From contig JAPKHT010000001.1 in assembly GCA_026646655.1 (NCBI GenBank), forward strand, positions 73,775-137,774: 64,000 nt of DNA. Reading direction: 5' to 3'. Both the position numbers and the translations under genes were made by a program. The stretch comes from Verrucomicrobiia bacterium (lineage in GTDB: Bacteria > Verrucomicrobiota > Verrucomicrobiia > JADLBR01). Shown here piece after piece: positions 254 to 63,512 of the stretch (position 1 is the stretch's first letter; every line of letters starts with the position of its first letter). The notes under the pieces were generated by a model. It was given only the letters and a program-made list of their open reading frames with translations. It had not been told where the DNA came from and searched no databases.

Positions 254-383
254 CCTGGTGCGCCGCAGGCTCGAAAATTCCAGATGTAGCCATGGCCGTG
301 AGGCCGTGGACCGCCGCCGCGCGGCCCCTCCGTTACCGGAGGGGCTACATTTTCAACTACGGTGGTGCCCCGCCCGGCGGGGC

Positions 384-1637
384 ATGGAATCTAAAAAGAA
401 AACCGAAGAGAATAGGGTGAGGCACACGAACCCATTCTTCGGTCGCCGATGGTCCCTCCGGGTTCTCGGCGCCTCGCTCCTCTTCTCCTCGGCCCTGTTG
501 CGCGCCGCCGGTCCATCGTTGGAGAAAAGCATCCTCTTCAGCGAGCGGACGGACGGTTTCACGCTCTATCGGATCCCCGGCATCGTCGTCACGGCGAAGG
601 GCACGGTGCTGGCGTACTGCGAGGCGCGGAAGTTCAGCGATGCCGACCGCGGCGAGATCGAGATCCACCTCCGCCGCAGCACGGACGGCGCCCGCACGTT
701 TTCACCCGCCAGACAAGTCGCCCACCTCGGCCCGCGCCTACCTCGCAATCCGCATGTGCCGGAGAGCAAGGAGAACAAAGACTTGGGCGGGCCGGAGGAA
801 CAGACGGTCAACAACCCCGTCGCAATCGCCGCGCGGGACGGCATCGTGCACCTCATCTATTGCGTCGAATACATGCGCGCCTTCAACGTCCGCAGCGAGG
901 ATGACGGGAAGACGTGGAGCGCCCCCGTCGAGATCACGGCGGCATTCGACGGATTCCGAGGGGATCTCGACTGGCAGGCCATCGCCACAGGGCCCGGCCA
1001 TGCCGTGGAACTGCAGAGCGGCCGCCTCTGCGTGCCCTTCTGGATGGCGACCTACGTGAAGGGGGCCCCGCTGCGAAAGGCCGTCGGCACCATCTTCAGT
1101 GACGACGGGGGCCAGACTTGGCAACGGGGCGACATCGCGGTGCCGGATGCCAGCGAACCGAACATCGCCCCGCTCCCCGATGGCGGCGTGATCCTCACCG
1201 CGCGCAACACCCATGAGCAAAGACGCCGCCTCGTCACCCGCAGCCCGGATGGCGCCACGGATTGGTCGAAGCCGGCGTTTGCGCAGGAACTGCTCGAACC
1301 GGGCTGCATGGCCGGCATCACCGCCCATCCCGGAACCGCCGCCGTCCCCGCACCGCTCCTGCTTTTCTCGAGCCCGCACACCACCGACCGCGAGCACGCC
1401 GCCCGACGCGACGTCACCATCCATCTCAGCCGCAACGATGGCAAAACCTGGCCCTTCGCCAGAACCCTCCAGCCCGGCCCGGGCGCCTACAGCGACCTCG
1501 CGGTCCTGCCCGACGGTACCGTGCTCTGCTTCTACGAGAGCGGCACCGAGAAGCCCGTAGTCCAGCGCAAGCGCGACTGGGCCTACGCGCATCTAACCCT
1601 CGCGCGTTTCAACCTCGAATGGCTCGAACAACCATGA
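384..1637 (+). CDS. BNR/Asp-box repeat exo-alpha-sialidase-like glycoside hydrolase (GH33-like), secreted
   Basis: ATG at 384 (MESKKK...) followed by hydrophobic signal region; YRIP motif (FTLYRIPGIV); five Asp-boxes S-x-D-x-G-x-T-W (STDGARTF, SEDDGKTW, SDDGGQTW, SPDGATDW, SRNDGKTW); stop overlaps next ATG (ATGA at 1634-1637). Longer ORF from 39 is probably not translated. Confidence 0.75.
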   Translation: MESKKKTEENRVRHTNPFFGRRWSLRVLGASLLFSSALLRAAGPSLEKSILFSERTDGFTLYRIPGIVVTAKGTVLAYCEARKFSDADRGEIEIHLRRSTDGARTFSPARQVAHLGPRLPRNPHVPESKENKDLGGPEEQTVNNPVAIAARDGIVHLIYCVEYMRAFNVRSEDDGKTWSAPVEITAAFDGFRGDLDWQAIATGPGHAVELQSGRLCVPFWMATYVKGAPLRKAVGTIFSDDGGQTWQRGDIAVPDASEPNIAPLPDGGVILTARNTHEQRRRLVTRSPDGATDWSKPAFAQELLEPGCMAGITAHPGTAAVPAPLLLFSSPHTTDREHAARRDVTIHLSRNDGKTWPFARTLQPGPGAYSDLAVLPDGTVLCFYESGTEKPVVQRKRDWAYAHLTLARFNLEWLEQP

Positions 1638-5940: not shown

Positions 5941-5948
5941 GGAACTCC

Positions 5949-6947: not shown

Positions 6948-6956
6948 ACGAAAGCA

Positions 6957-11404: not shown

Positions 11405-11451
11405 CAGATGGCAGGGTTCCCCTCGGCCGCCCAACAGATGACAACACTAAC

Positions 11452-18094: not shown

Positions 18095-19510
18095 CTAGTT
18101 GGAATTCGGATTCGGCGCGGGCATGGCGGCGCCGGCCTGGGTGCGCCAGCGCTGGAGTTGCTGGAGCAATGATGCGGCTTTGTCCGGCATCCGAGGCGAG
18201 AGATCGATCTTCTCGGCGGGGTCATCCTTGAGGTTGTAGAGCTCGAGCCGGCCGTCCTCGAAGTATTCGAGCAGCTTCCAGTCGCCGGCGCGCACGGCGC
18301 CCACGGGTGTGGTGGTGGCGTAGTAGTGTGGGTAGTGAAAATAGAGGGCCTCGCGGTGGAGCTTGGTGTTGGGTTGTTGCAGCAAGGGTTTGAGGTCGAT
18401 GCCGTCCGCGGCTTCTGTCGATTTTGCGTTGGATAGCGTGGCGTTGAGGGTGTGAAAGAGATCCATCAATACCACGGGTTCACGGCATTCAGCCGCAGGG
18501 GGAGTGACGCCGGGCCAGCGAACGATCAACGGGACGCGGATGCCGCCTTCGTAGAGCGCCCCCTTGCCGGAGCGCAGCGGCGCGTTGCACGTCACGGGCA
18601 CCGCCTGGCCTTTGTCGGTGCCGATGTAGCCGCCGTTGTCGCTGGTGAAGATCACGAGGGTGTTCTCCTCCAGTCCCCGCCTTTTCAAATGATCGAGCAC
18701 CCGCCCCACGCTGTCGTCGAGGCTCTTCACCATCGCGGCATAGACGGCGTTCTGGTGCTGCTGGCCGGGGCGGAGTTTCGCCTCGAAATGCCGGATGTCC
18801 TCGGCCTTCGCCTCGATGGGCGTGTGCGGCGCGTAGTGGGCGAGGTAGAGGAAAAAGGGTTGATCGCCGGCGCGGTCGATCACCCGGAGCGCTTCGTCGG
18901 TGAGCCGGTCGGTGAGGTATTCGCCCGGTTTGCCGAACTCCAGATGCGGCACGTAGCGGAATTCTGGCCCGAAGCGCCCGCTGCCGCTGTACGGCCAGAA
19001 GAACGTCTGCGGCGCGCCCCACTGCGTGCCGCCGACGTTCACGTCGAAACCGTGGGTTTCGGGATAATGGGCCGCGTCGCCGAGGTGCCACTTGCCGACA
19101 AGAGCCGTGAGGTAGCCCGCGTCGCGCAAACGTTGGGCGAGGGTCGTCTCGGTGTGCGGCAGGTCATGAAGCGAGTCCGCCTGGATCAGCTTGCGTTTCT
19201 TCGGGCCGCTGCGCGATCCCTCCGACCAGATCGTCATGTGCAGCCGCGCGGGGTGCTTGCCGGTGAGCAGCGCCGCGCGGCTCGGCGTGCAGACGGACAT
19301 CGCGTAGGCATCGGTGAAGCGCACCGCTTGTCTGGCGAAGAGATCCAGGTGCGGCGTCTCGTGCAAATCCGCGCCGTAGCAGCCGAGATCGCTCCAGCCC
19401 AGATCGTCGGCGAGGATGAGGACGATGTTGGGTTTGCCCGGTTCGGCGGCGTGCAACGCGGCCAGCGGCGCGATCAGGAGGGCGGTGAGGAGTGTGAGGG
19501 TGGTTTTCAT
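18095..19510 (-). CDS. S1-family sulfatase
   Basis: Signal peptide MKTTLTLLTALLIAPLAALHA; NIVLILADDLGWSDLGCYG; formylglycine motif C-T-P-S-R; start codon overlaps the stop of the upstream minus-strand gene (tcat at 19507-19510). Confidence 0.85.
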   Translation of the reverse strand: MKTTLTLLTALLIAPLAALHAAEPGKPNIVLILADDLGWSDLGCYGADLHETPHLDLFARQAVRFTDAYAMSVCTPSRAALLTGKHPARLHMTIWSEGSRSGPKKRKLIQADSLHDLPHTETTLAQRLRDAGYLTALVGKWHLGDAAHYPETHGFDVNVGGTQWGAPQTFFWPYSGSGRFGPEFRYVPHLEFGKPGEYLTDRLTDEALRVIDRAGDQPFFLYLAHYAPHTPIEAKAEDIRHFEAKLRPGQQHQNAVYAAMVKSLDDSVGRVLDHLKRRGLEENTLVIFTSDNGGYIGTDKGQAVPVTCNAPLRSGKGALYEGGIRVPLIVRWPGVTPPAAECREPVVLMDLFHTLNATLSNAKSTEAADGIDLKPLLQQPNTKLHREALYFHYPHYYATTTPVGAVRAGDWKLLEYFEDGRLELYNLKDDPAEKIDLSPRMPDKAASLLQQLQRWRTQAGAAMPAPNPNSN

Positions 19511-23126: not shown

Positions 23127-24965
23127 ATGAAGACCACCCGCCTGATCCTCATCGCCGCATTGTTGGCGCCTCTGGCCGAACCGGGGGCCGCCGAAACCGG
23201 TTTCCGATCCAAGCACCTCGCCGTGGGGCTCGCGCGCGCGGCGCCGGCGTTCAACCGCTTCGCCGTGGACTCGCTGGGCCAGGGCGAGGTCGAGCAGAAT
23301 CCCGTGCTTGCGGAGACCCATGCGTTCGAGGGCCTCGCCTTGGAGGGACAGACCTATCGGTTGAACGGCATGCCGGTATGGACCGTGGCGTGGGAGGAGA
23401 GGGTGCTATCGCTGCGCTCCGAATGTGCTGGAGGCGCCGTTGCCCCGCCATTCACGGTCACGTTCGATCAGAAGGCGAATCACGCGACACTGCTTGGGTT
23501 GATGGAACCCGGTGAGCGGCAGATGGGGGTGCCGTGCCTGCTGCACCTGCCGGACATGGGGACCCTGCGCATCACCTGCGACGCGCCCGGGGTGAAACTC
23601 GACTACGACGCGCGGCGAAGCGTCAAGCCCGCGTTCGTGAGCGTCGCATTCCCTGCGGCGACGGCGAAGAGGCCCCGGGTGGAGTATCGGCTGGAGGTCG
23701 TGTCCATCCACCCGCGACTGCCCGGGATCGAGGGCAACTCCCTGTATGATGGCTTCCGGCGGGACTGGCTGAATATTTTCCAGGTCAACCCCCGGGTGCA
23801 GATGCTGGCGAACAACGCGTCCAGCGACCCGTGCGCCTTTACGCTATTCGAGTATTCGGATCTCGCGCGGCACACGCCGCCTCTGGCCGAGGGCCTGACC
23901 GCCAACGATTTGATCCGCATGACGCTGGACCGCTATATCTCCGGCGCGCTGGGCTACGGCCAGATCGGCTATGCCTGCAAGCCGACCGACGCCGACCTCA
24001 TCTCCTGGCCGACGCCCTGGACCACGCTCGATACCCTGCCTTCATTCCTGATCTCGGCCTGCAATTACGTGGAGGGCTCGGGCGACACGGACTGGGCGCG
24101 CGCCAATCACGGGAAGCTGGCCGCATGGGGGAGGGAGATGTTTGCCGCGGACAGGGATGGCAACGGCCTCGTGGAATACCCGGGCACCGGCAACTTCGGG
24201 GAGCGCCCGACGCGCGAGCGGCGTCCCTCCAATTGGTGGGACACGATCAACTTCGGCCACGAGGACGCCTTTGGCAACGCGCTGGTCTATCGGGCCGGGA
24301 CGATGTTCGCCGAACTCGCCCGGCGGTTGGGGCGCGAGGAGGATGGGCGGTTCTTCGCCGAAAAGGCCGATAGGCTGCGCGCCGCCTACGCGCCGGCCCT
24401 GCGGAATCCCGCGACCGGCGTGATCGCGGGATGGAAGAGCGCGGACGGGCAATTGCACGACTACTGGTTCACTTTCGTGCAGGGCATGGCGGTGACCTTC
24501 GGCCTGCTGGATGAGGAGATGGCCAACGACGTCATGGATCGCCTGCTGGCGAAGATGCGGGAGGTGGGCTATTCGCGGTTTGAGCTTGGACTGCCGGGCA
24601 ATCTCGTTCCGGTGAAAAAGGGCGACTATGTGGATCACGAGGGACCCCCCGAGCGCCACGGGGTCCCGCAGCGCGACGACGGCTCGGACGGCTTCCAGTT
24701 CTACGAGAATGGCGGGGCGACCGGCTGCTGGAGCTACTACACGGTCAAGGCATTGTACCAGCTCGGCCGCGCCGAGGACGCGCGGCGCATCTTCCACCCG
24801 ATGTTGCGGGCGTATGCCCGGGGCGAGTTTCAGGGCTTCGGCGAGAACGGCATGTCGCGCGACTGGCGCGATTGGGCAGGCGGCTGCCACGGGTACGAGG
24901 GGCTGCTGGTGGACAACTACCACGCGCTGTTGGGGGTATTAGATGACGTGGGGGCGAACCCGTGA
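23127..24965 (+). CDS. secreted hypothetical protein, probable (alpha/alpha)6 six-hairpin glycosidase-like
   Basis: Signal peptide MKTTRLILIAALLAPLAEPGAA; helical repeat content with conserved aromatic/acidic residues (WWDTINFGHEDAFGNALVYRAG...YWFTFVQGMAV...YENGGATGCWSYYTVKALYQLG) typical of six-hairpin glycosidases. Confidence 0.65.
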   Translation: MKTTRLILIAALLAPLAEPGAAETGFRSKHLAVGLARAAPAFNRFAVDSLGQGEVEQNPVLAETHAFEGLALEGQTYRLNGMPVWTVAWEERVLSLRSECAGGAVAPPFTVTFDQKANHATLLGLMEPGERQMGVPCLLHLPDMGTLRITCDAPGVKLDYDARRSVKPAFVSVAFPAATAKRPRVEYRLEVVSIHPRLPGIEGNSLYDGFRRDWLNIFQVNPRVQMLANNASSDPCAFTLFEYSDLARHTPPLAEGLTANDLIRMTLDRYISGALGYGQIGYACKPTDADLISWPTPWTTLDTLPSFLISACNYVEGSGDTDWARANHGKLAAWGREMFAADRDGNGLVEYPGTGNFGERPTRERRPSNWWDTINFGHEDAFGNALVYRAGTMFAELARRLGREEDGRFFAEKADRLRAAYAPALRNPATGVIAGWKSADGQLHDYWFTFVQGMAVTFGLLDEEMANDVMDRLLAKMREVGYSRFELGLPGNLVPVKKGDYVDHEGPPERHGVPQRDDGSDGFQFYENGGATGCWSYYTVKALYQLGRAEDARRIFHPMLRAYARGEFQGFGENGMSRDWRDWAGGCHGYEGLLVDNYHALLGVLDDVGANP

Positions 24966-24973
24966 GGCGCGCG

Positions 24974-26110
24974 ATGAGGCTGGCGGTCTTCCTGCTCTTG
25001 GTGCCGCTGGCGGGGCTCTGCGCCGTTCGGTGCACGGTGGCTGCGCCCGGGGCAAAGCCCATGCTCCTTGCCGCGTACTACTGCTGGTACCACTCCGGCG
25101 ACCATCCGACAAAGGCGTGGCTGCACTGGACGTACCCGTCCTCGGCGACCAACGCCGTGGCGCTGAGGGCGCAGCGGCCCGGCGAACCGCCGATGGCCAG
25201 CGTGTTTCGGCCGCTCGCGGGATTCTATGACAGCGCGGATCCGGCCGTGGCCGAATGGCACGTGAAACTCGCGCGCGCTGCAGGGATCGACGCGTTCCTG
25301 GTCGATTGGTGGGACGCGCACAACGGGCTCGACAAGATGGTGGACGAGGGGATTGTCGCCGCGTGCGAGAGGCAGGGGTTCAAGTTCGCGTTGCTCGACG
25401 AGCGCGCCCAATTCCACAACGACGAGGGGCAATACCGCGCGATGCTCGCCCGCGCGTTGCGCCGATACAAGGACAGCCCGGTCTACCTGCGGCTCGATGG
25501 CCGGCCGGCCGTGTACCTGTATCAGGTGGCCAATGATCCGGGCCTGCGCCCAGAGACCTTCACCGAGCTGAAGAAACACGTCGAGGCCGAGGTCGGGCCG
25601 GTGTACTGGATCGTGGACAAGATCGCGCACGACCCCAAGGCGGCGCGGGCGGGTGATGCCGACCGCGTCAAGTGCATCCCCAAGGAATGGCTCGCCACGC
25701 CTGGCATCGACAGCTTTGCGTTCTACAGCACCTTTTCGAATTTCAAGGCCCACCGGTACGACGAGTTGATCGGAAAGTATCGCTACCTCGCGCAACTCGC
25801 GCACGGCGCGGGGAAGAAGATGCTGTTGCCGGCGCATCCCGGTCACGACAACTCGCACTTCAATCCGGCGCCCTATGTCATGCCGCGGCGCGACGGCCAG
25901 ACCCTGCGCGACTACCTCCGCGCGGCCACGGACGCCGGCGCGGATTTCATCATGGTGACCAGTTGGAATGAGTGGCCAGAATCCACCGTGGTTGAGCCCT
26001 CCTCCTCGTGGCCCGATCCCTATCGGTACCTGAGGATCCTGGCCGAGTGGAAGGGGGTCGCCTTTGGTGCCGGACCTTTGCCGCCGCTTCCCGGGCGGAC
26101 CGGAAACTGA
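24974..26110 (+). CDS. GH99/GH71-like (beta/alpha)8 glycoside hydrolase
   Basis: N-terminus LLAAYYCWYHSGDHPTKAWLHWTYP matches the GH99-type YYxWYG...W.HW motif; VTSWNEWPESTVVEP matches (I/V)TSFNEWhE; a GTG at 24962 is an alternative start that overlaps the upstream stop. Confidence 0.65.
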   Translation: MRLAVFLLLVPLAGLCAVRCTVAAPGAKPMLLAAYYCWYHSGDHPTKAWLHWTYPSSATNAVALRAQRPGEPPMASVFRPLAGFYDSADPAVAEWHVKLARAAGIDAFLVDWWDAHNGLDKMVDEGIVAACERQGFKFALLDERAQFHNDEGQYRAMLARALRRYKDSPVYLRLDGRPAVYLYQVANDPGLRPETFTELKKHVEAEVGPVYWIVDKIAHDPKAARAGDADRVKCIPKEWLATPGIDSFAFYSTFSNFKAHRYDELIGKYRYLAQLAHGAGKKMLLPAHPGHDNSHFNPAPYVMPRRDGQTLRDYLRAATDAGADFIMVTSWNEWPESTVVEPSSSWPDPYRYLRILAEWKGVAFGAGPLPPLPGRTGN

Positions 26111-26137
26111 AGTCAAGAATCGATATCCGTCGGTCAA
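26111..26137 (+). promoter_or_regulatory. direct-repeat motif AGTCAAGAATCGATATCCGTCGGTCAA (GGTCAA-N15-GGTCAA family), copy 1
   Basis: Begins 1 nt after the TGA of the upstream gene, ~110 nt upstream of the GH29 start; the same architecture occurs at 44955 and 60075. Confidence 0.45.
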
Positions 26138-26247
26138 AGGGAGACATTTCTTTCCTGGCTGCGACCAGGCATCCTGTCCCCGCCGATGTATTGCGCGGAT
26201 CGAGATTTCCGCGGTGACACAGCAGAGGAGTGAAAGGAAACGGCGCC

Positions 26248-28062
26248 ATGAGAGTGACCCTGCATCATATCGCGGCGATTTGCCTTGCCGTGAGGCCCCT
26301 CGTTTCTGACGGGGCGGACAAACCCGAACCGGTGATGGACGGCACCTCGGCCGACATGTGGGGCAAGGGTGGCGTTGCGAAGGGCGATGCCCGCGGGGCG
26401 TGGCTGAAGGACTCGCGTTTCGCGATGTTCGTTCACTGGGGCCTGTATTCGGAGCTGGGGGGAAAATGGGACGACAAGACGTACTACGGGATCGCCGAGT
26501 GGATCATGAAGCGCGCGAAGATCCCCGTGGCCGAGTACGAGAAGGTGGCGGGGCGCTTCAACCCGACTGGCTTCGAAGCGCGCGAGTGGGTAAAACTCGC
26601 GAAGGACACCGGCATGCGCCACATCATGATCACCTCGAAACATCACGATGGGTTCGCGATGTTCAAGTCGGCGGTCAGCCCATTCAACATAGTCGACGCG
26701 ACGCCCTTCAGGCGGGATCCGATGAAGGAGCTGGCCGACGCGTGCCGCGAGGCGGGTCTTCGGCTGGGGTTTTACTACTCTCAGACGCAGGACTGGCACG
26801 AGCGCGATGCCGTGGGCAACGACTGGGACTTCAAGCCGGCCGAGGCGAATTTCCAAGGTTACCTGAAGGGCAAGGCCATCCCGCAGATCGAGGAACTGCT
26901 GCGCAACTACGGGCCGATCGCCGGGGTGTGGTTCGACACGCCGGGGCCGATCACGCCCGAGGAATCGAAGACGCTCGTCGATCTGGTGCACCGCCTGCAG
27001 CCGCAATGTCTCGTCAATAGCCGCATCGGCAATGACCTCGGCGATTACGACACGCTCGGGGATCAGGAGATCCCGCGGCTGCCGCGCGCCGGCCTGTGGG
27101 AGACCCCCGACACGCACAATGACACGTGGGCCTATGCCTGGTACGACAAGAATTGGAAGAGCCCGCGCGAGATCGCGGAGCGGCTCGTCCGCGTGGCGAG
27201 CCGGGGCGGCACCTACATGCTCAACGTCGGGCCCGATGGAATCGGGCGCATCCCGGGGCAGTCCGCGCGCATCCTGCGCGAGGTCGGCAGATGGGTGCTC
27301 GCGCACGAGGACGCGATCCATGGCGCCGGGCCGACGCCATTCGGCCCACTCGCCTGGGGCGAGTGCACCACCCGGGGGAACACCCTCTTCCTCCATGTCT
27401 TTCAATGGCCCGCGGACGGGCGCCTCGTCGTCCCCGGCCTGAGGACGAAGGTGAAGTCCGCCCGGCTGGATGGGGCGGGAGAACTGGCGGTCGAGTCGGG
27501 GACGGAAGCGCTGACGCTCGCGCTGCCGGCCAGTCGCCCGGATGTCCTCATCCCTGTGGTGGCCGTCGAGCTGGACGGTCCGGCGGAGGCTGGCCGCGAA
27601 CAGTTCGTGATCAACGGCTGCCGCCAGACCCTGGAGACGGGCGTCGCGAAACTTCAGGGCTGCGAGCTGAAGGCGGTGCGCTGGATGGAGAAGTTCGGCG
27701 ATTGGAAGCACGCGGAATGCGTCGTCGGCTGGCGGGGTGCCGAGAGTTCGACGGAATGGGAGTTCCGCACGGTCGCCCCCGGTTCCTTCTACCTCGACGT
27801 GGAATACACATGCCCGGCCGAGGAGGATTACTCCGAGTGGCGCGTGAGGTGCGGCGACGCCGAACTCACCTTCCCCCTGATCGATACCGGAGAGCGCCCC
27901 AAGCGCGCGGCGTTCGGTGGCGCGCTGCCGCGTTTCCGGACCTATCGCGTGGGCGTGATCGATTTCCCGAAGGCCGGTGCGCAGCGGCTGGCCCTGGGCC
28001 CGACCGGCATGGGGGGAAGGGCAGTCCGGATCGCCGCGGTGACGCTCGCGCCGGTGGAGTGA
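26248..28062 (+). CDS. GH29 alpha-L-fucosidase with C-terminal beta-sandwich and extra ~170-aa domain
   Basis: FAMFVHWGLYSELGG, KHHDGFAMF, WFDTPGP match the GH29 core; a GTG at 26230 is an alternative start. Confidence 0.85.
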   Translation: MRVTLHHIAAICLAVRPLVSDGADKPEPVMDGTSADMWGKGGVAKGDARGAWLKDSRFAMFVHWGLYSELGGKWDDKTYYGIAEWIMKRAKIPVAEYEKVAGRFNPTGFEAREWVKLAKDTGMRHIMITSKHHDGFAMFKSAVSPFNIVDATPFRRDPMKELADACREAGLRLGFYYSQTQDWHERDAVGNDWDFKPAEANFQGYLKGKAIPQIEELLRNYGPIAGVWFDTPGPITPEESKTLVDLVHRLQPQCLVNSRIGNDLGDYDTLGDQEIPRLPRAGLWETPDTHNDTWAYAWYDKNWKSPREIAERLVRVASRGGTYMLNVGPDGIGRIPGQSARILREVGRWVLAHEDAIHGAGPTPFGPLAWGECTTRGNTLFLHVFQWPADGRLVVPGLRTKVKSARLDGAGELAVESGTEALTLALPASRPDVLIPVVAVELDGPAEAGREQFVINGCRQTLETGVAKLQGCELKAVRWMEKFGDWKHAECVVGWRGAESSTEWEFRTVAPGSFYLDVEYTCPAEEDYSEWRVRCGDAELTFPLIDTGERPKRAAFGGALPRFRTYRVGVIDFPKAGAQRLALGPTGMGGRAVRIAAVTLAPVE

Positions 28063-28072
28063 GGGGGGCGAT

Positions 28073-28336
28073 GACTCGAAAATTCCGTCGGCTCGCACAT
28101 AGCGGCCCGGGGACGGTCCGCATTCCACAGGCCTTCGGCCGAAATCAGGCGGTATCCTGGGCCATGGCGGCGCCCGGTTTCGCGCGCGGCGCTATGGAGT
28201 GCGGTGCGTCCACGCACCGCTTTGGGCCGAAGCGGGTGAGGATGTTTCATCCCCCGGCGGTCCGGCGGCTGCCGGATGACGTCTAGCTCGAAAATCGCCG
28301 CATCGCATCCCGTAGCCGAACGCGTGAGCGTTTGGG
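28073..28336 (+). repeat. ~265-nt structured intergenic element, full copy A (5' module + 3' module ending in a GNRA hairpin)
   Basis: Aligns over its whole length with 58415-58681 (GACTCGAAAATT ... AGCGGCCCGGGGACGGTCCG ... GGAGTGCGGTGCGTCC-CGCACCGCTTTG ... CCGGCGGTCCGG ... TCGAAAAT ... AACGCGTGAGCGTTTGG); internal hairpins GCGGTGCGT/ACGCACCGC and CCGAACGC-GTGA-GCGTTTGG; the frame-matched peptides of the two copies diverge and hit a stop, so it is non-coding. Confidence 0.7.
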
Positions 28337-28384
28337 AGATGGAACAAGATGGCAGGAATCGGGGTCGCCGTATATCCTCCCCGC

Positions 28385-29755
28385 ATGAAGCGTGCGCTCT
28401 GTGCCGTTGCCCTGATGTCCGTGGCGCTAGCCCCGCCGCATGCCGCCGATTCCGGGGCGAAGAGACCGAACATCCTGTTCATCGTGGCCGACGACCTCGG
28501 CTGGGGCGACGTGGGATGGCACGGCGGCTTTGGCAAGACCCCGCACATGGATAGGCTCGTGCGGGAGGGCATCGAGCTGGACCAGCATTACGTGCAACCG
28601 GTGTGCACGCCCACGCGGGCGGCGCTCATGAGCGGCCGCTATCCGGGGCGCTTCGGGCCGCAGGCCCTCGCACCGAGCAATCTGAGGGCGATGCCGCTGG
28701 GCACGGTGACGATGGCCTCGGCCCTCAAGTCGATGGGCTACCGCACGCACCAGAGCGGCAAGTGGCATCTGGGCGCCAGGCCGGAGTGGATTCCGAATGC
28801 CTACGGTTTCGACACGAGCTACGGCACGCTCACGGGGGCGGCCGACCCGTGGACCCACAAGTACCGGAAGGGGCACGCCTATGAGGACACGTGGCACCGC
28901 GACGGGAAGCGCCTCGACGAGGAGGGCAACGCCACCGAGCTGATCGCGGCCGAGGCGGTTCGCCGCATCGTGCAGAAGGGTGCGCCGTGGTTCATCTATG
29001 TCGCGTTCCATGCGGTGCACACGCCCGTGGATGCGCCGGATGAATACAAGCGGCCCTACGATGGCGCGACCTTCCACGCCGATCCCGGGAAGCAGGATTC
29101 CCGCCTGCGCATGGCCGCGATGGTCTCGCAGCTCGACGCGAAGATAGGCCAGTTCGTTGAGGCTCTGGAGAAGACCGGCCAGCGAGAGAAGACGCTGATC
29201 GCCTTCACCAGCGACAACGGCGGCATCGAGTCCGTCAAGAACGCCTACGTGGGCGCGGTCCCGGATTCGCCATTCAACAGCGAGAACGATCCCCTGCGCG
29301 GCCAGAAGAACACGCTCTACGAGGGCGGTATCCGGGTGTGCGCCTTCGCCAACTGGCCGGGCACGCTCGCGCCGAGCAAGTCCACGGCCCCGATGCACGT
29401 CGTCGATTGGCTGCCAACCCTCGCCTGCCTCGTGGGCTATGAGCCGGGCGCCGACCTAAAGTGGGACGGCGTCAACCAGTGGCCCGCGCTCGTGGGTCCC
29501 GCCCCGCCCGCCGGTTCCCGGACGATCTACATCGCCAGCAGACGTGGCCACGCCCTGCGCCACGGGGATTGGAAACTGATCCAGCCCTCGCGCGGCGCGC
29601 CAGAACTGTTCGATCTGGCGGCTGATCCGTACGAGAAGGATGACCTCGCGCGATCCCAGCCGCAGAAGATGGCGGAGCTCCAGGGACTGTTGGACGCCCA
29701 GCGGGCCAAGGACGAACCGAACTTGCCACCCGACCTGGACGGGCTGCCCGAATAG
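28385..29755 (+). CDS. S1-family sulfatase
   Basis: Signal peptide MKRALCAVALMSVALAPPHA; NILFIVADDLGWGDVGWHGG; formylglycine motif C-T-P-T-R; GKWHLG; SDNGG. Confidence 0.85.
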   Translation: MKRALCAVALMSVALAPPHAADSGAKRPNILFIVADDLGWGDVGWHGGFGKTPHMDRLVREGIELDQHYVQPVCTPTRAALMSGRYPGRFGPQALAPSNLRAMPLGTVTMASALKSMGYRTHQSGKWHLGARPEWIPNAYGFDTSYGTLTGAADPWTHKYRKGHAYEDTWHRDGKRLDEEGNATELIAAEAVRRIVQKGAPWFIYVAFHAVHTPVDAPDEYKRPYDGATFHADPGKQDSRLRMAAMVSQLDAKIGQFVEALEKTGQREKTLIAFTSDNGGIESVKNAYVGAVPDSPFNSENDPLRGQKNTLYEGGIRVCAFANWPGTLAPSKSTAPMHVVDWLPTLACLVGYEPGADLKWDGVNQWPALVGPAPPAGSRTIYIASRRGHALRHGDWKLIQPSRGAPELFDLAADPYEKDDLARSQPQKMAELQGLLDAQRAKDEPNLPPDLDGLPE

Positions 29756-30589
29756 TTATCCCGCTCCCCAGGCGCGCCGCCGGACCTCCCGCGGGCAGGC
29801 GCCCTGGGCGCGCCGCACCAGGCGAGAGAAATGGAAGGGGTTCCTGAAACCGCAGCGCGCGGCGATCTCGGCGACCGTGAGGCCCGTCTCGCCCAGCAGG
29901 GCGACGCCCCGCTCCACGCGCAGGCGCCAGAGGTGCCGCGCGGGCGTGAGCTTCATCTCGTCGCGAAACTTGTAGATCAGCGCATTGCGTGACACCCCGG
30001 CCGCGCGATGGGCGCCGGCGAGGCAATCCGATTCGCCGAAGTGCTCCTCCATGTGCCGTAGCGCGGCGTGCACCGGCGCCATGTGGCGGGAGACTGCGCC
30101 GCCCGCGCGGGACATGTTCACGTACTCGCGAAACAGGCACAGGGCCACATCGAGGACGACGTGGCGCGCCGATTCGTTCACGGGCAGGGCCAGCTTGAAT
30201 GCCGCCGCGTGGAGGTGGCGGAACGTGTCGGAACAGGCCGCCAGCGGTGGCGCGCCCGACAGCCGCCGCCGGAGGTCGGCGGGAACGCGAGCCGGCGAAA
30301 GCGCGCACCACGTGTGGTGTGTCTCGGCGGCCGGGGAGAACTGGAAGCGCTCGCGCCCGCCGGGCCGCAGCAGCGCCGCCCAGCCGATCCGGAGCTCGCG
30401 CGGCTCGGTGCCCACGGACAGCCGACAGTTCCCCGAGTGCAGGATGACCAGCTGGAAATCGCGCTGTATGCGCGGGCCGCAAAAACCGCCGGGACCGTAG
30501 CGTATCTCGCCCAGCACCACCCCCGGCGCGCGGAGCCTCCGGTTGTCCCACAGGACGTGCGCCCCATCGTAGAACATGTCGCCATCCAA
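29756..30589 (-). CDS. AraC-family transcriptional regulator
   Basis: N-terminal cupin-like sensing region; C-terminal AraC HTH (LTVAEIAARCGFRNPFHFSRLVRRAQGACPREVRRR); divergent from the beta-helix lipoprotein gene at 30781. Confidence 0.8.
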   Translation of the reverse strand: MDGDMFYDGAHVLWDNRRLRAPGVVLGEIRYGPGGFCGPRIQRDFQLVILHSGNCRLSVGTEPRELRIGWAALLRPGGRERFQFSPAAETHHTWCALSPARVPADLRRRLSGAPPLAACSDTFRHLHAAAFKLALPVNESARHVVLDVALCLFREYVNMSRAGGAVSRHMAPVHAALRHMEEHFGESDCLAGAHRAAGVSRNALIYKFRDEMKLTPARHLWRLRVERGVALLGETGLTVAEIAARCGFRNPFHFSRLVRRAQGACPREVRRRAWGAG

Positions 30590-32744: not shown

Positions 32745-32780
32745 GCCAAGCGCTCGCGCGTTCGGCTACGCGTTGCTGGC
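32745..32780 (-). repeat. degenerate inverted-orientation copy of the 3' hairpin module (CGTAGCCGAACGCGCGAGCGCTTGG)
   Basis: Plus strand reads ccaagcgctcgcgcgttcggctacgcgttgc, whose reverse complement is gcaacgcgtagccgaacgcgcgagcgcttgg. Confidence 0.3.
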
Positions 32781-39497: not shown

Positions 39498-40837
39498 AGC
39501 GAGACTTCAGCCTGTTCGGCGCACTGTGGCTCATCGCGGTCGCCGGCCTGTGCGCCGGTGCGCCGGGGCCCGGGGCCGCCGGCGGATCCGGGCCATCGGT
39601 GGCGGCCTATGACTCCATCCAGGCCGCGCTCGATGCCAACCCGGGGCGGATGATCTTTGTGCCGGCCGGGGACTACCCGATCGCCGAGAAGATCCGCGTG
39701 CGCGGCGAGCGGTCTGGACTATTCGGCCCGGGGCGCATCATCCAGCAGAACGCGGACCAGCCGATCATCGAGATCGAGAATGCCGATGCCGCCGAGATCC
39801 GCGACCTCACGCTGACGCGGGCCGAGGGGAAGATGGAGACGGGCAACGAGGGCATCCTCGCCATCCAGTGCCGTGATATCGTGGTCGATGGCGTGCGCGT
39901 GATCGACAACCGGACGCGCTCGGCCGCGATCGCATTGCGCGAGTGCCGGGGGGCGCGCGTCAGCCGGTGCGTCGTGAGGAACTACATGCGCGTGAGCGTG
40001 GACGACCGGACCTCCAGTAAGGAATGGGGCTATGCGTTCAATTGCACCGATGGCACCGGGATCGGCCTGGATCGCTGCACCGGATCGCTCGTCGAGGGCA
40101 ACCGCATCATCGAGGAGAACTTCATCCCCACGCCGGAGATCAAGGCCAGGTACCGGCTCGGCGATTGGGTGAAGAAGAACCCGGAAAAGGGGACATTCCT
40201 CAGCCAGCGTGCCTGGGACGCCGCATATTCGGACAACTGGCAGCAGGGCTCGGCCATCATCGTCAACGCGCCGGACGCCAGCGATCTCACCCGCATCCTC
40301 GGGAACCACGTTGAGAACGCCGCCCAGGGCATGGACATCCACGCCGACCACGTCATCGTGGCGAACAACGTCATCGCGAATTCATTCATGGGCATGAAGG
40401 CGATGCACGGCTCGCGCAACGTGCTCATCATCGGCAACCAGTTTTCGAAGAACTGCCTGTGGGCCATCGGCCTGATGCCGGGTGCAGCGGCGCACCCCGG
40501 GGAAAAGGGCAAGCCGGAGACCGCGAACGCCGACGGCGGCTCGATCATCGCGAATAATATCATCTCCGACTTTGGCCATGGCGACGCGCACTGGATCTGG
40601 GGGATCGAGCGCTCGCCCTTCAAGTTCGACGAGGGCCAGCAATCCGACGATCCGCCGCTGGCCGATGTGATCGTGCAGGGCAACCTGGTCCACTGCGTTG
40701 GCGAACCGCGGTACAAGTACGCGGTCATGCTCTCGGCCGGGCCGAACGCGCCGCGCGGCATGCACTTCTCCGACAACCTGTTCGCCCCTGGCTCGGCGGG
40801 GGTTTCCAACCGGGAATTGCCGCAGCGCATCCCGTAG
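39494..40837 (+). CDS. right-handed beta-helix repeat protein, secreted
   Basis: Signal peptide; PbH1-like rungs (NNVIANSFMGMKAMHGSRNVLIIGNQF; ANNIISDF); ATGA overlap with the upstream sulfatase; its stop codon lies inside a copy of the 3' hairpin module. Confidence 0.75.
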   Translation: MKRDFSLFGALWLIAVAGLCAGAPGPGAAGGSGPSVAAYDSIQAALDANPGRMIFVPAGDYPIAEKIRVRGERSGLFGPGRIIQQNADQPIIEIENADAAEIRDLTLTRAEGKMETGNEGILAIQCRDIVVDGVRVIDNRTRSAAIALRECRGARVSRCVVRNYMRVSVDDRTSSKEWGYAFNCTDGTGIGLDRCTGSLVEGNRIIEENFIPTPEIKARYRLGDWVKKNPEKGTFLSQRAWDAAYSDNWQQGSAIIVNAPDASDLTRILGNHVENAAQGMDIHADHVIVANNVIANSFMGMKAMHGSRNVLIIGNQFSKNCLWAIGLMPGAAAHPGEKGKPETANADGGSIIANNIISDFGHGDAHWIWGIERSPFKFDEGQQSDDPPLADVIVQGNLVHCVGEPRYKYAVMLSAGPNAPRGMHFSDNLFAPGSAGVSNRELPQRIP

Positions 40838-40857
40838 CCGAACGCGTGAGCGTTTGG
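40827..40857 (+). repeat. 3' hairpin module copy (GCATCCCGTAGCCGAACGCGTGAGCGTTTGG)
   Basis: Identical to 28306-28336; overlaps the last codons and stop of 39494..40837 (…RIP*); ~95 nt upstream of the esterase gene at 40955. Confidence 0.6.
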
Positions 40858-40954
40858 CCGCCAATCGCCCGAGGCGATCGGTCGCATCTTCGGCGCCGGT
40901 GGGCCCCCGTGTTGGGTTGCGCCGGCCGATGCATCTTGATATGAACGGCATCCT

Positions 40955-44931: not shown

Positions 44932-44954
44932 CTTTACGTGCGGGGATCGCCCCG

Positions 44955-44980
44955 GTCAAGAATCGACATCCGACGGTCAA
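44955..44980 (+). promoter_or_regulatory. direct-repeat motif GGTCAAGAATCGACATCCGACGGTCAA, copy 2
   Basis: In the divergent intergenic region, ~130 nt upstream of the 45109 start. Confidence 0.45.
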
Positions 44981-45108
44981 CTATTGATATTTCCCGAACG
45001 GGGGTGGGATGGACACCATGGGACATCGGATCGTGCCCGGCCGAGGCCTTTTCGAGGAGCGATGTGGTGAACGACTATTTTTTTATCGGGGCGGGGAGGT
45101 GGTGCGCG

Positions 45109-48258: not shown

Positions 48259-48299
48259 GGGTCCCGCGATTGGACATCGGCCCGCCGATCCAGTAGGAT

Positions 48300-49133: not shown

Positions 49134-50497
49134 GCCTCCGGGTTGGAATACCGGTTGTTGTTGCGCTGACCGCTGGCCCGTGCGTGTCCGGCGGCGTCGA
49201 TCTGGGGGGCGTGACGGTATCGCTCGAGGCCTATCATGGCCCCGCGAGCGTCACGGCAGAGATCGAGGCGCCATTCCGGCTGCGCCTGGCGGTGCATCCC
49301 GCGGAGGAGAAGGGGGCGTTGGCGATCCGCGTGGCCTTGCCGAAGACCGGTCCCCGGGCGTGGCCCGCAGAGGATGTCGAGGTGCGTGACTCGCGGGGCG
49401 AGGCGATGATGGTGCGGCGCGCCGGCATCGAATGGTCCACGCTTGTGATCCCCGTGCCCGCCACCGCGGCGGCGTACGTGGTCCAGGCCGTGGGCCCGGC
49501 GCCGAAGCGAGCCCCGGGGCCGCCCGACAGCGCGCGGGTCATCATGGATGACGCCACCGGCCTGCGCCTTGGCATCGCGAGATGGTACGACGGCCGGAAG
49601 GCCGCGCTGAGCATCCGTTTCGATGACTCGCATCCCACGCATCTGACCGCGGCCGCGCCCATCTTGCGCGAGTATGGTTTCCGCGGCACGTTCATGGTCA
49701 ATCCCGGGGCCGCAGAGCCGGGGAGCAGGAGGCGCTCCAATTTTGCCGAGCGCGCGTCGGAGTGGGCGGCCTTGGCCCAACAGGGTGATCACGAGCTGGC
49801 CAACCACACGGCCCACCATCGAGGCGCCAAGGGCGACGAAGAGATGGAGGCGGAAATCGGCGATGCGGCGCGCGCCATCTGGGCGATGACGCCCGGGAAG
49901 AGCAAGCTCATGGCGCTCAATCTGGGCGGCGGCACCTTCTGGGAGACAACCCGCACCCTGCGCTACTATCTCGACAAGTACCACCAGTTCGATGCCTCCG
50001 GTAATTCCACGGGCATGGATGACAGCTATGGGGATCGCGTCGGCAATTTCCGCCGGATGCTGGAGCAGCATGTGGAGCGCGGCCTTTGGTTGCGCGTCCA
50101 CTACCACTACATTGGCGAAGGGCTCAGCAGCAGCGAGGCAAACTTCCGCGCCGCCCTGGACGTTGCCAAGGCACACCGGTCGGCCCTGTGGGTCGCCGGC
50201 ATGGCAGATATCCACAAATACCAGACCGGGCGCGATTCTGCGCGATTGACTCTCCTCGGATCTAGCGCCACTCGCCTCGAATTTCGCATCGCCCCCCAAA
50301 CCGACCACGAACTCTACGATCATCCGCTGACCCTGGAGATGACGCGCGCGGGAGCGCTGGATGCGACCCGGGTGGCGGTTAAAGACGCGGGCGGACAGGC
50401 CGTCCCGGTTCGCGCCGGCGATGGCGCGGGCGACGCCGTCCTGCGGTTCGACGTGGCCCCGCGCGAGGCGGCTTACTCCATCGAGATCAAACCCTGA
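49130..50497 (+). CDS. CE4 polysaccharide deacetylase (NodB-homology domain)
   Basis: RWYDGRKAALSIRFDDSHPTHL (TFDDG-type motif), GFRGTFMVN, ANHTAHH (HxxH motif). Confidence 0.75.
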   Translation: MSLRVGIPVVVALTAGPCVSGGVDLGGVTVSLEAYHGPASVTAEIEAPFRLRLAVHPAEEKGALAIRVALPKTGPRAWPAEDVEVRDSRGEAMMVRRAGIEWSTLVIPVPATAAAYVVQAVGPAPKRAPGPPDSARVIMDDATGLRLGIARWYDGRKAALSIRFDDSHPTHLTAAAPILREYGFRGTFMVNPGAAEPGSRRRSNFAERASEWAALAQQGDHELANHTAHHRGAKGDEEMEAEIGDAARAIWAMTPGKSKLMALNLGGGTFWETTRTLRYYLDKYHQFDASGNSTGMDDSYGDRVGNFRRMLEQHVERGLWLRVHYHYIGEGLSSSEANFRAALDVAKAHRSALWVAGMADIHKYQTGRDSARLTLLGSSATRLEFRIAPQTDHELYDHPLTLEMTRAGALDATRVAVKDAGGQAVPVRAGDGAGDAVLRFDVAPREAAYSIEIKP

Positions 50498-50535
50498 CCC
50501 GAAAATTGCCCATCGCCTCCCGTAGCCGAGCGCGT
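50489..50535 (+). repeat. 3' hairpin module copy (CCGAAAATTGCCCATCGCCTCCCGTAGCCGAGCGCGTGAGCGTTTGG)
   Basis: Begins at the stop of the CE4 gene; the a->g change in the stem is compensated by a G-U wobble. Confidence 0.6.
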
Positions 50536-50670
50536 GAGCGTTTGGCCAAAGCCTCTCGGCTTCGGATACATTCACGGCCCCGGCGGCGCCCCCGACGCGG
50601 AGGGGATTTCGCGCATGCGCGCGAAATTTGCAGGCTAGACCCTGGATCCGAAGGCATCCATGTTCTTGCA

Positions 50671-54845: not shown

Positions 54846-55034
54846 AGCGTCGCTGCAGGAGAGGGTCCATGCGTCGCCCTCGACGAGGCGTGCGGGCAAC
54901 CGAAGCTGGGGCCCGGGGGTGAGAGGCCTTCTCGCTCGACCCCTGGCAGGCCCGGGGACTAGGGTATTCCCATGGCACGAGTTGTCTCTTCGGCATCCAC
55001 GGTCGTCATGGACGCTTTGTTCTTGAGGTGGCCG

Positions 55035-57526: not shown

Positions 57527-58416
57527 GAGCCATCCTCGTCACGATCGCCGTCGCATGGCTGATGCCCGCGCCCGCATCGCTCGCCGCCAGGAAGGCGGAC
57601 GACGACGCCCCGCCCGGCAAGGTCTATGTCTACAAGCACTCCGCCGGCAAACCGCGCCAGATGGAGATCTATTTCCCGGAGGGCCATGACCCCGCGAAGG
57701 CGAATGTCCCCGGCGTGATCCTGTTCCACGGCGGCGGATGGACGGGCGGAGGCCTCACCCAATTCCGGGCCGCGTGCCACTACTTCGCCGGACGCGGGCT
57801 GGTGGCCGCGACGGCGGAATACCAGATGCTGTCCAAGGCGGATGCCGCCAAGTTGCCCGCGGGCGAAACCAAGAAGCGCGTCTGCATCACCGACGCCAAG
57901 AGCGCGATCCGCTGGTTCAAGCAGCACGCGGGCGAATTGGGCATCGATCCGGCGCGCATCATCACCGGAGGCGGTTCCGCGGGCGGCCACGTCTCCGCGC
58001 TCGCCACGTTGAATCCGGGACTCAACGATCCCGAAGACCCAAAAGACATAGACAGTTCGGTCGTCGCCTACCTGTGGTTCAATCCCGCCTTCACGTCGGC
58101 GGACCGCGACGATCCGGAGGTCGATGTCCTCCGCCACCTCAAGGCCGACATGGCCCCGGCCATCGCCTTTTTTGGCACGGAGGACACCTGGAAGCAGGGC
58201 TGGGACGCGGCCCACGAAAAATTGAAATCCCTCGGCAACAGCACCACGGAGCTGTGGTTGGCCGAAGGGCAGGGGCATAGCTTTTTCAATAGAGACCCGT
58301 GGCGCGCGCTGACCCTCATCGCAGCCGACCGTTTCCTGGTGCGACGGGGGTGGCTCTCTGGCGATCCGACGCTCGCGCCGCCCGCCGGCGGGGAGAAGTT
58401 GGTCAAGGCGCGCTGA
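57523..58416 (+). CDS. alpha/beta-hydrolase fold-3 esterase (CE10-like)
   Basis: Signal peptide; oxyanion-hole HGGGW; nucleophile GGSAGGH; 4-nt overlap with the upstream sulfatase. Confidence 0.8.
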   Translation: MRAILVTIAVAWLMPAPASLAARKADDDAPPGKVYVYKHSAGKPRQMEIYFPEGHDPAKANVPGVILFHGGGWTGGGLTQFRAACHYFAGRGLVAATAEYQMLSKADAAKLPAGETKKRVCITDAKSAIRWFKQHAGELGIDPARIITGGGSAGGHVSALATLNPGLNDPEDPKDIDSSVVAYLWFNPAFTSADRDDPEVDVLRHLKADMAPAIAFFGTEDTWKQGWDAAHEKLKSLGNSTTELWLAEGQGHSFFNRDPWRALTLIAADRFLVRRGWLSGDPTLAPPAGGEKLVKAR

Positions 58417-58681
58417 CTCGAAAATTTCGATTGCCCGCAAAGAGCGGCCCGGGGACGGTCCGTACTCCACAGGCCTTCGGCCGAAATGCGGCGACATCCT
58501 GAGACAGCGTCAACGCGTCCTGACAGCGACCCATTTCGCGCGCAGCGCTTTGGAGTGCGGTGCGTCCTCGCACCGCTTTGCGCTGAAGCGGCTGAGAGAT
58601 TTTTTCCTCCGGCGGTCCGGCAACCGCCGGACCAGACGGGCTGCGTCGAAAATTCCGGTGGTCTAACGCGTGAGCCTTTGG
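58415..58681 (+). repeat. ~265-nt structured intergenic element, full copy B
   Basis: Starts on the TGA of the esterase gene (TGACTCGAAAATTT) and is collinear with copy A over 5' module, hairpins and 3' module; the stem loop differs (CCA vs CTC) while the stem is kept; ends ~90 nt before the GH43 start at 58775. Confidence 0.7.
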
Positions 58682-58774
58682 CTGCCAAGGCGTCACGGCG
58701 TCGGCTGCGTTTTCATCGGGCGGTTCTCCTCTGGCCCGCTTGCCAGGGAACGGGAGTTCCGATTGAATGCTGGG

Positions 58775-59710: not shown

Positions 59711-59714
59711 CGAA

Positions 59715-60060: not shown

Positions 60061-60074
60061 GGTCGGATGCCGGG

Positions 60075-60100: not shown

Positions 60101-60133
60101 TTTTCGCCATTCTTCTTTGTGGGGGCGAGGGTC

Positions 60134-61462: not shown

Positions 61463-62209
61463 GGTCCCACGCGGCAGGCGAAGGGCGGCGGGTTCAGCGA
61501 GCGCGCCGACCGGGATTTCACTCCGGAGGATATCCGCTTCACGGCGAAGGGTGACGCGCTCTATGCGATCGCGCTCGGCTGGCCCGCGGATGGCAAGGTC
61601 TTGGTGCGATCGCTGGCATCGGTCGCGGGCAAGGTCGCGCGGGTGCGGTTGCTGGGGCACGCCGGCGATCTGGAGTGGTCGCAGGGTGAGGAGGGGTTGC
61701 TGGTGAGGATGCCGGCGCAGCGCCCGGCGGAACATGCGCTGGCGCTTGAGGTGCGAGGTGAGGGCCTCGAGCCGGCGCCATTGCCCGAACAGGACCCGGC
61801 GATCCGGCCGGACCCCGATGGCAGCATCCGGCTCGAACCTGGCGCGGCGGAATTGCACGGCTCCAAACTCCGGATCGAGCGCCGTCATGACCACGATTAC
61901 ATAGCCGCGTGGGACAGGGCGGAGGAGTGGGCCTCGTGGGCACTGGTCGTCCCCGCCAAGGCGACCTATGAGGTGAGCGTCGTATGCAGCACGCCCATCA
62001 GGGATACGGACTTCATTGTGGAGATCGGCGGCCAGCGACTCCGCGGCGTCGCAAAGAAGACCGCCGGTTGGTATGAGTACCGGACCGTTACCGTGGGCCG
62101 CATCGAGCTGGCGCCGGGCGCCGGGATCCGGTTGGCCATACGCGCCGCGGATCCCTCGGCATGGAAGGCCATCAACGTCCGCGGGATCCGGTTGGATGAT
62201 GTCAACTGA
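61463..62209 (+). pseudogene. in-frame continuation of the GH29 gene (C-terminal beta-sandwich + ~170-aa extra domain) after the amber stop
   Basis: Same frame as 60134..61462; translation ...KVYG*GPTRQ...FTPEDIRFTAKGDALYAIALGWPADGKVLVRSLAS... aligns with the C-terminal domains of the intact GH29 at 26248..28062 (…LFLHVFQWPADGRLVVPGL…). Confidence 0.6.
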
Positions 62210-62259
62210 CTCAAGAATTGACACATCGCATCCCGTGGCCGAACGCGCGAGCGCTTCGG
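62208..62259 (+). repeat. 3' hairpin module copy (GACTCAAGAATTGACACATCGCATCCCGTGGCCGAACGCGCGAGCGCTTCGG)
   Basis: Begins on the TGA at 62207-62209; hairpin GGCCGAACGC-GCGA-GCG(C)TTCGGCC with GNRA loop and extended stem; ~125 nt upstream of the 62384 start. Confidence 0.6.
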
Positions 62260-63355: not shown

Positions 63356-63512
63356 CGGGCGCGGGGCACGGTAAACGGCAGGACGCGGCCGACTGCCGTG
63401 GGCGATCGTGCGCCAAACGCTGACGCGTTCGGCTGCTGAAATCTGGAGCCAGGCATGAATGGATGGAGAGACCCGGAGGCTATTGCCCCGATCACGATTT
63501 GGGGATAACCTC

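Follow-up and report, generated by a model that had tools for sequence, protein, structure and literature searches.

Introduction

Repetitive extragenic palindromes (REPs) combine a GTAG head with a palindrome (PMC2817692; PMC3733652; PMC8266576) and serve as substrates of REP-associated tyrosine transposases (RAYTs, also called TnpA-REP). These HUH Y1 transposases bind the single-stranded hairpin together with its GTAG and cut at a nearby CT, located 5' or 3' of the REP, GTAG acting as the guide (PMC8266576). Two inverted REP-like arms that surround a variable spacer and fold into one long hairpin characterize the REP doublets forming hairpins (REPINs; Bertels & Rainey 2011, PMC3116915) and the bacterial interspersed mosaic elements (BIMEs) of E. 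coli. Such repeats, including families headed by GTGG, are highly enriched in Opitutus terrae, a cultured relative from the same phylum as the bacterium studied here (PMC2817692; PMC3733652; PMC8266576). For REPs of enterobacteria, a role as barriers at 3' ends or as partial terminators has been described (reviewed in PMC8266576 and PMC3733652). Here, we examine two look-alike spacers, copy A (28072-28336) and copy B (58414-58681), in a 64,000-nt stretch of a Verrucomicrobiia bacterium (GCA_026646655.1, contig JAPKHT010000001.1, positions 73,775 to 137,774; hereafter, the window). A reading of the sequence alone had described them as a ~265-nt structured element lying between carbohydrate-active enzyme (CAZyme) genes, with a possible regulatory role. 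We conclude that they are quite likely BIME-like mosaics of non-autonomous, REP/REPIN-type palindromic repeats and not a gene-specific regulator.

Results

The two spacers are made of two adjacent repeat units

The two copies are collinear, non-coding and hairpin-rich, as the sequence-only reading had proposed. Alignment of 28000-28450 with 58340-58800 gives a mean column identity of 78%, flanks included, with long exact blocks. The blocks that had been named in the 5' and central part (AGCGGCCCGGGGACGGTCCG, CCACAGGCCTTCGGCCGAAAT and GAGTGCGGTGCGTCCnCGCACCGCTTTG) are exact in A and B and found at no other site of the window, dinucleotide shuffles giving a chance expectation of ~0-0.1. The central hairpin GCGGTGCG-TCCA/TCCT-CGCACCGC has the same stem in both copies and a single changed base in its loop (hyphens separate adjoining segments of a motif). 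Six-frame translations are open in places but shift frame between copies or reach stops, which agrees with the proposal that conservation acts on nucleotides or structure and not on a protein. Copy A lies between a fucosidase gene (5') and a sulfatase gene (3'), ending 13 nt 5' of the sulfatase ATG (28349), and copy B lies between genes for an acetyl-esterase-like hydrolase and a GH43 enzyme. The host resembles Verrucomicrobiae/Opitutaceae, and contig JADLBR010000036.1 (GCA_020847615.1) is 99.7% identical to window 47523-64000.

The element is not, however, the single ~265-nt unit that had been proposed: it consists of two adjacent units, each opening with the head box TCGAAAAT. In copy A, the second unit (28284..28335; features are on the + strand unless marked -) is composed of the head TAGC-TCGAAAAT (28284-28295), a 16-nt spacer and a GTAG REP, in which GTAG (28312-28315) abuts the hairpin CCGAACGC-GTGA-GCGTTTGG (28316-28335; eight pairs, one of them G-T, and a 4-nt loop). 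In copy B (58646..58681), the same head TCGAAAAT (58646-58653) precedes a decayed REP, GTGG-TCTAACGC-GTGA-GCCTTTGG, which carries a 12-nt deletion relative to copy A.

The 3' module is a dispersed GTAG-type REP linked to a RAYT in related genomes

The 3' module is an ordinary, dispersed GTAG-type REP, and it has every REP property that could be tested. It is not confined to copies A and B: the same GTAG hairpin occurs at five more window sites, on both strands. A window search for CCGTAGCCGAACGCGTGAGCGTTTGG with up to 3 mismatches returned five matches, three in + orientation (28310, 40832, 50520) and two in - orientation (32746, 63413), where none was expected; further degenerate copies, at 62233 with a GTGG head and in copy B, bring the number to seven sites in 64 kb. 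The tetranucleotide is GTAG at 28312, 40834, 50522 and 32771(-), GTGG at 62235, and degenerate at 63438(-) and in copy B.

A degenerate core pattern was scanned over one genome per species, and the matches listed are strongly enriched for one metagenome-assembled genome (MAG), Oleiharenicola CAZEUN01, where the scan yields lower bounds of at least 27 exact-pattern REP copies in at least 16 loci, several loci having 2-4 copies. In these loci conservation is limited to GTAG and the hairpin, the flanks being unrelated, and many of the REPs form inverted doublets 10-25 nt apart (L027, L029, L043, L069 and others; loci and contigs outside the window carry L numbers), which is the REPIN/BIME arrangement. 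In L011 of this MAG, an inverted pair of these REPs, at 21-45(+) and 663-687(-), flanks an open reading frame (ORF) of 197 amino acids, in which PDHLHLI is the HUH motif and YILDNPVRAGL the tyrosine motif. This ORF matches NCBIfam NF047646 (REP-associated tyrosine transposase; E=1e-13, profile positions 14-146 of 146) with 51 bits, below the curated cut-off of 80 bits. Its best PDB match, E. coli TnpA-REP (4er8), is weak (E=0.085), and its public homologues bear the JGI name "REP element-mobilizing transposase RayT". REPtrons, in which this gene stands between GTAG REPs, are also found in two other Opitutaceae MAGs (L087, L088), where the REP has a near-identical design, such as GTAG CCAAACTC-GTGA-GAGTTTGG. 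The REP core of copy A is thereby shown to be RAYT-linked in related genomes.

Overall, the REPs studied here resemble described GTAG REPs and REPtrons (PMC2817692, PMC3733652, PMC8266576) in the GTAG or GTGG head abutting an 8-bp stem with a 4-nt loop, in being extragenic, numerous, present on both strands and capable of forming inverted dimers, and in that the same REP stands beside a RAYT gene in a related genome. There are also differences: the window members of the copy A REP family are singlets only, they have an additional head, TGAC-TCGAAAAT, 5-17 nt 5' of GTAG, the TGA of this head is in frame with the upstream gene and usually is its stop, and the RAYT linkage comes from related MAGs and not from the host genome.

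The long unit is an inverted doublet that forms a conserved rod

Besides copies A and B, the ~215-nt unit was recovered from three loci. A metagenome scan with an exact 21-mer of the 5' module (CCACAGGCCTTCGGCCGAAAT) found two loci only, L074 and L075. Comparing a concatenated six-frame translation of the element with 5.8 billion proteins, which makes a poor census, gave P0001 in L079 as the sole match, and this is the fifth copy. Conservation extends from the head to GCACCGCTTTG, over ~170 nt, and a looser tail hairpin follows. The profile of the unit matches the same loci on the reverse strand (E ~1e-12), and the unit is therefore a long palindrome. In all copies a single ~35-nt consensus, CAAA-GCGGnnCG-rGGA-CGnnCCGC-ACTCCAmAG, describes both of its arms, one inverted relative to the other, and the "nn" positions differ between arms while each local stem is preserved.

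In copy A, the imperfect, REPIN-like palindrome spans 28093..28230 and contains arm 1, GCGGCCCG-GGGA-CGGTCCGC (28102-28121), an apical block, GGCC-TTC-GGCC/CGAAAT (28130-28145), followed by the variable spacer, then TTTCGCGCGC (28178-28187) and the inverted arm 2, GCGGTGCG-TCCA-CGCACCGC (28201-28220). The palindrome of copy B (58435..58586; arm 1 58444-58463, inverted arm 2 58557-58576) has a spacer 14 nt longer. The tail hairpin is GCGG-TCCGGC-GGCT-GCCGGA followed by TGAC in copy A (28257..28280) and CCGGCGGT-CCGGCA-ACCGCCGG in copy B (58609..58630). In L075 the tail reads GGCGG-TGCCCCGC..GCGGGGCA-TGAC and matches, as does the tail of copy A, the tail of GTAG REPINs, GGTGG-TGCCCCGC...GCGGGGCA...CTGAC, found in L058, L059 and at window 362-395.

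The ~215-nt unit is thus an inverted doublet with a conserved rod. RNAalifold folds it into a rod of ~150 nt with 49 pairs, in which 93.1% of cells are paired over the five copies (slid controls, 34-52%). Six pairs are changed on both sides, a number reached by 3 of 500 column shuffles; this compensatory change, resting on five sequences, is supportive but not conclusive. About 22 of the 245 rod cells are G-U on the + strand and would be A-C on the opposite one, making the + strand the better folder, be it as RNA or as single-stranded DNA; the + strand also folds better than shuffles, with z = -2.0 for copy A and z = -3.6 for copy B. A model of local hairpins only is equally paired (93%), but its covariation is no better than in shuffles, and for this reason the rod model is preferred. 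As in REPINs and BIMEs, two inverted REP-like arms around a variable spacer form one long hairpin, the arms are kept while the spacer diverges, and units join other REP types and motifs in mosaics and tandem arrays.

The head box usually coincides with upstream stop codons

The head TGAC-TCGAAAAT is common to both unit types and contains a CT. Among 15 heads, nine begin with TGAC and two with TAGC, and GTAG follows the head at a distance of 5 to 17 nt (5 in L081, 7 at window 271, 10-11 in L058, 15-16 in others). In all six co-directional cases with a confirmed or Pfam-supported gene, the TGA of the head is in frame with that upstream gene, and in five of them it is the actual stop: window 50495, 58414 and 62207, L074 and L081. 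The proposal that the element starts on the upstream TGA holds exactly for copy B (head 58414..58425, where TGA 58414-58416 is the esterase stop) but not for copy A, the sixth case (head 28072..28083), whose TGA (28072-28074) keeps the frame of the fucosidase ORF and lies four codons past its real stop (28060-28062). At L058 3796 the head TGA may close an open frame of 211 codons, a candidate gene, and in L079 the head has no TGA and the ORF continues for ~80 codons into the element.

Tandem head-REPIN-tail units occur in the Verrucomicrobiales MAG CAZYWZ01, at L058 3794-3990 and 560-702(-) and at L059 4985-5240 and 230-366(-). They have the same head, TGAC-TCGAAAAT, and the same tail, GGTGGTGCCCCGC..GCGGGGCA-GGGATCTGAC, with different palindromic bodies, so that the head-tail frame is common across genomes and the bodies are swapped. 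A homologous head-body-tail unit stands at window 267..395, with the head AGGC-TCGAAAAT, a heterodimeric body in which GTAG-CCATGGCC-GTGA-GGCCGTGG is joined to an inverted GTAG-CCCCTCCG-GTAA-CGGAGGGG, and the tail GTGG-TGCCCCGC-CCG-GCGGGGCA (362-395).

The units are dispersed and turn over between orthologous sites

The long unit is dispersed to unrelated gene contexts and in both orientations. In L074 its start is the stop codon of an SPFH/Band-7 gene, and the TolC-like (OEP) gene on its other side is convergent, so there is no downstream leader for it to occupy; in L075 both neighbours are minus-strand genes to which it is antisense; and in L079 it follows an arabinofuranosidase gene whose ORF reads through it. 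Three of the five long copies are within polysaccharide-degradation clusters, a neighbourhood that carries little weight because the genomes are CAZyme-rich. Orthologues of the esterase (87-89% identity) end on the same residue and differ in what follows: TGA-CTCGAAAAT and the long unit in the window, TGA-CTCGAAAAT and a different GTAG REP in L081, a TAG stop and then unrelated sequence in L080 and L082. The element is thus not retained at this junction, and what occupies the site turns over. Neither a fixed position and orientation by gene class nor retention in orthologues, as expected of a cis-regulatory element, was found. In the public alpha-L-arabinofuranosidase call P0001 (L079 359-1525), a C-terminal extension of ~80 residues is the translated long unit.

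The sequence-only reading recognized no known element, and database searches agree: an Rfam search of the whole window returned no match at the gathering threshold, an E-value search of copy A gave sub-threshold noise only, and plasmid and phage collections hold no match to the element. Rfam RF01687 (Acido-Lenti-1 RNA) bears a weak likeness to the REP hairpin on the - strand, with 18.5 bits against a gathering threshold of 37 and E=0.07 in a 501-nt search, and the REP hairpin is not a member of that family.

Assembly breaks also fall within the repeats. Logan contigs from four independent runs (L001-L004) all start at window 28307, inside the REP, as expected from the effect of multicopy k-mers on de Bruijn assembly. 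Three contigs from three samples (L076-L078) end at 58563, inside the central block, which implies further copies sharing 31-mers or longer. Contigs of the esterase junction, including L080-L082, end 51-147 nt after the stop, again pointing to repeats.

Further REP sites in the window

The remaining window sites vary in their heads. At 40834..40857, a GTAG REP with no mismatch follows a degenerate head, CCGGGAAT. The ORF 39494-40837, for a beta-helix protein, has its TAG stop (40835-40837) inside the GTAG of this REP, and its final ~10 codons cross the degenerate head and the spacer of the unit. At 50495..50545, the head TGAC-CCGAAAAT precedes a GTAG REP with one mismatch (50522-50545), and TGA is the stop of a polysaccharide deacetylase gene (49130-50497). 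At 62207..62259, the head TGAC-TCAAGAAT, whose TGA is the stop of ORF 61601-62209, precedes a GTGG-headed variant REP, CCGAACGC-GCGA-GCGCTTCGG (62235-62259). Two REPs of the copy A family have no head box and are on the - strand: 32746..32771, between two + strand genes, and 63413..63438, which has three mismatches and the tetranucleotide CAGC.

Two of these copies have in common an additional ~30-nt 3' extension with a second small palindrome, GATCGCCC.GGGCGATCG, seen at 40836-40888 and, inverted, at 63382-63434 (53 nt, 79% complementary), which suggests another composite subfamily. At 28333-28349, the 3' stem arm of the copy A REP, GCGTTTGG, overlaps a GGGAG Shine-Dalgarno-like stretch 11-16 nt 5' of the sulfatase ATG; the hairpin, if formed in the sulfatase mRNA, could partly mask ribosome binding.

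Discussion

As BIME-like mosaics, copies A and B would each combine a ~55-nt GTAG REP, the type of substrate used by RAYT/TnpA-REP, with a ~215-nt unit in which two inverted ~35-nt arms around a variable spacer would form the ~150-nt rod next to a small tail hairpin. A RAYT acting in trans on + strand hairpins of single-stranded DNA could spread and maintain the units. Their placement at stop codons might come from target choice, from selection, or from both, with survival where the head TGA is the upstream stop; copies may persist there because other placements would truncate or extend proteins. In polycistronic CAZyme and sulfatase mRNAs the hairpins would probably have only a secondary role, as barriers to 3'-exonucleases or partial terminators for the upstream gene. 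It is plausible that the head marks a cleavage or junction site. The coincidence of head and stop codon is the one unexplained feature of the system, and the one that deserves specialist attention.

Several observations weigh against this interpretation. The data searched yielded only five long units in total, two of them in 64 kb; copy number appears low, and the arms of the unit are headed by ATAG, AGAG or AAAG (5' arm) and by CAAA or CAGA-G (3' arm), where REPINs have GTAG on each; for this reason we name it REPIN-like and not a member of the class. A further difference from REPINs is the spacer, which is long (60-85 nt) and conserved in part, GGCCTTCGGCCGAAAT and TTTCGCGCGC being among the conserved pieces. 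The five copies have diverged in their spacers but share invariant blocks of 20-46 nt; these blocks are therefore under constraint, which an RNA function could also explain. Of the five long copies, four run in the same direction as the upstream gene. No RAYT flanked by long-unit arms was seen in the window or in the loci carrying the unit, and tblastn of the window and the other loci detected no RAYT except that of L011, host sequence being covered over ~68 kb. Finally, the CAZEUN01 REP copies lack the head box that the window singlets conserve, and the window REP subfamily is for that reason not a textbook REP.

The units also recall the palindrome-associated transposable elements (PATEs) derived from IS200/IS605 insertion sequences (IS), and IS608. 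One strand is the better folder, in keeping with a single-stranded intermediate, they have subterminal hairpins with a 5' tetranucleotide at the guide position, and a short conserved TGAC stands at the left junction, comparable to the TTAC target of IS608 (PMC8266576). In contrast to these elements, no full-length parent IS was found here.

The sequence-only reading suggested a cis-regulatory RNA, a small RNA or a promoter cassette, specific to a CAZyme family and situated in the leader 5' of the following gene. This function is not supported: the varying contexts, the RAYT-linked REP, the turnover of the site and the lack of a detected promoter all speak against it. A dedicated structured RNA (cis leader, intercistronic element or small RNA) controlling the CAZyme and sulfatase genes could draw on the + strand folds that beat shuffles, on the covariation in the rod and its G-U pairs, on the invariant blocks and on the location of three of the five copies in polysaccharide-degradation clusters. 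We nevertheless regard it as distinctly unlikely: Rfam has no above-threshold match, the L074 copy lies between convergent genes and the L075 copy is antisense to both neighbours, the element is not kept at the orthologous esterase-GH43 junction, and its head and tail recur in bona fide GTAG REP/REPIN units, tandem arrays included; promoter- or terminator-like signals were not found, and the CAZyme richness of the genomes weakens the argument from neighbourhood. Promoters recognized by extracytoplasmic function (ECF) sigma factors, such as TGAAAC-N16-CGTA, resemble the arrangement GAAAAT-N15-16-CGTA, which is present in four window copies that sit 5' of + strand genes. The elements could accordingly be imagined as promoter/operator cassettes driving the downstream gene, with TCGAAAAT as a -35-like box, the CGTA of C-GTAG as a -10-like ECF box and the palindrome as operator. 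We give this possibility hardly any credence. The variable spacing between head and GTAG, from 5 to 17 nt, excludes the geometry of a promoter; the REP's own GTAG, conserved in the head-less MAG copies, accounts for CGTA; copies of this REP on the - strand (32746, 63413) point into 3' ends of genes on the + strand; and heads are seen in tandem arrays as well as between convergent genes. Promoter and terminator scans of copies A and B detected no sigma-70-like site and no canonical terminator, and two boxes at a fixed spacing were not found.

The direct TCGAAAAT repeats that bracket both long units of the window (28076/28288 and 58418/58646), together with the simple head-plus-REP sites free of a long unit at 50495 and 62207, might also evoke a miniature inverted-repeat transposable element (MITE) derived from a classical DDE IS, in which the ~215-nt unit would have inserted into a head-plus-REP site and duplicated an 8-bp target, TCGAAAAT. 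Such an origin is very improbable, given that the L074, L075 and L079 copies have no second TCGAAAAT, that the unit ends bear no terminal inverted repeats, the inverted arms being internal, and that the second box simply opens the following unit, just as it does in the L058 and L059 tandem arrays. Integron attC sites were considered and discarded: the copies contain no RYYYAAC...GTTRRRY core sites and the flanking genes are CAZymes of 1-2.6 kb. No integrase-like gene was seen in the part of the window that was scanned, about half of it, namely the 10 flanking genes and the Pfam-annotated calls of 28.3-36.6 kb and 47.5-64 kb. A further reading starts from the head itself, which may mark cassettes mobilised as single strands, with a variable palindromic body and a tail hairpin, that insert precisely at stop codons or survive only there, supplying an in-frame TGA; the rod may in addition, or instead, have been co-opted as an intercistronic module of RNA stability or processing in Opitutaceae polysaccharide-utilisation operons. 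We consider this unlikely. Target choice by a Y1 transposase, were it to explain the head TGA, would make these units an unusual example of insertion directed by stop codons.

If copies A and B are REP/REPIN mosaics, a false lead is removed, since an apparently novel CAZyme-linked regulatory RNA would then be part of the repeat load typical of Opitutaceae. Should the hairpins act on mRNA, they could still set the relative expression of neighbouring cluster enzymes. The repeats have practical consequences as well: they yield spurious C-terminal protein extensions, as in P0001, and are a systematic source of fragmentation in short-read assemblies of the lineage.

Other repeats in the window

A third repeated intergenic motif, GTCAAGAATCGnnATCCGnnGGTCAA-N7-8-(C/T)ATT, occurs at 26106-26148, 44949-44991 and 60069-60111 and contains two GGTCAA-like half-sites 21 nt apart. 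One copy is located just past the stop of the gene 24962-26110 and another in the intergenic region of a divergent gene pair (43729-44931, minus strand; 44938-48258, plus strand). The motif might serve the cluster as operator or promoter; the window encodes an AraC-type regulator at 29756-30589 (minus strand). Within the motif, TCAAGAAT is similar to the variant of the head box at 62211.

In addition, seven to ten genes start with near-identical DNA for the signal peptide MKHTLTLL.ALLLAPLAA, at 1627-1698, 4938-5009, 5942-6013, 6956-7027, 11445-11516, 12788-12859 and 14131-14202, and inverted at ~19438-19513 (repeat families D1-D3 and inverted repeats I1-I6). The similarity of these signal-peptide repeats is high even at the nucleotide level, and the enzymes that carry them are otherwise different.

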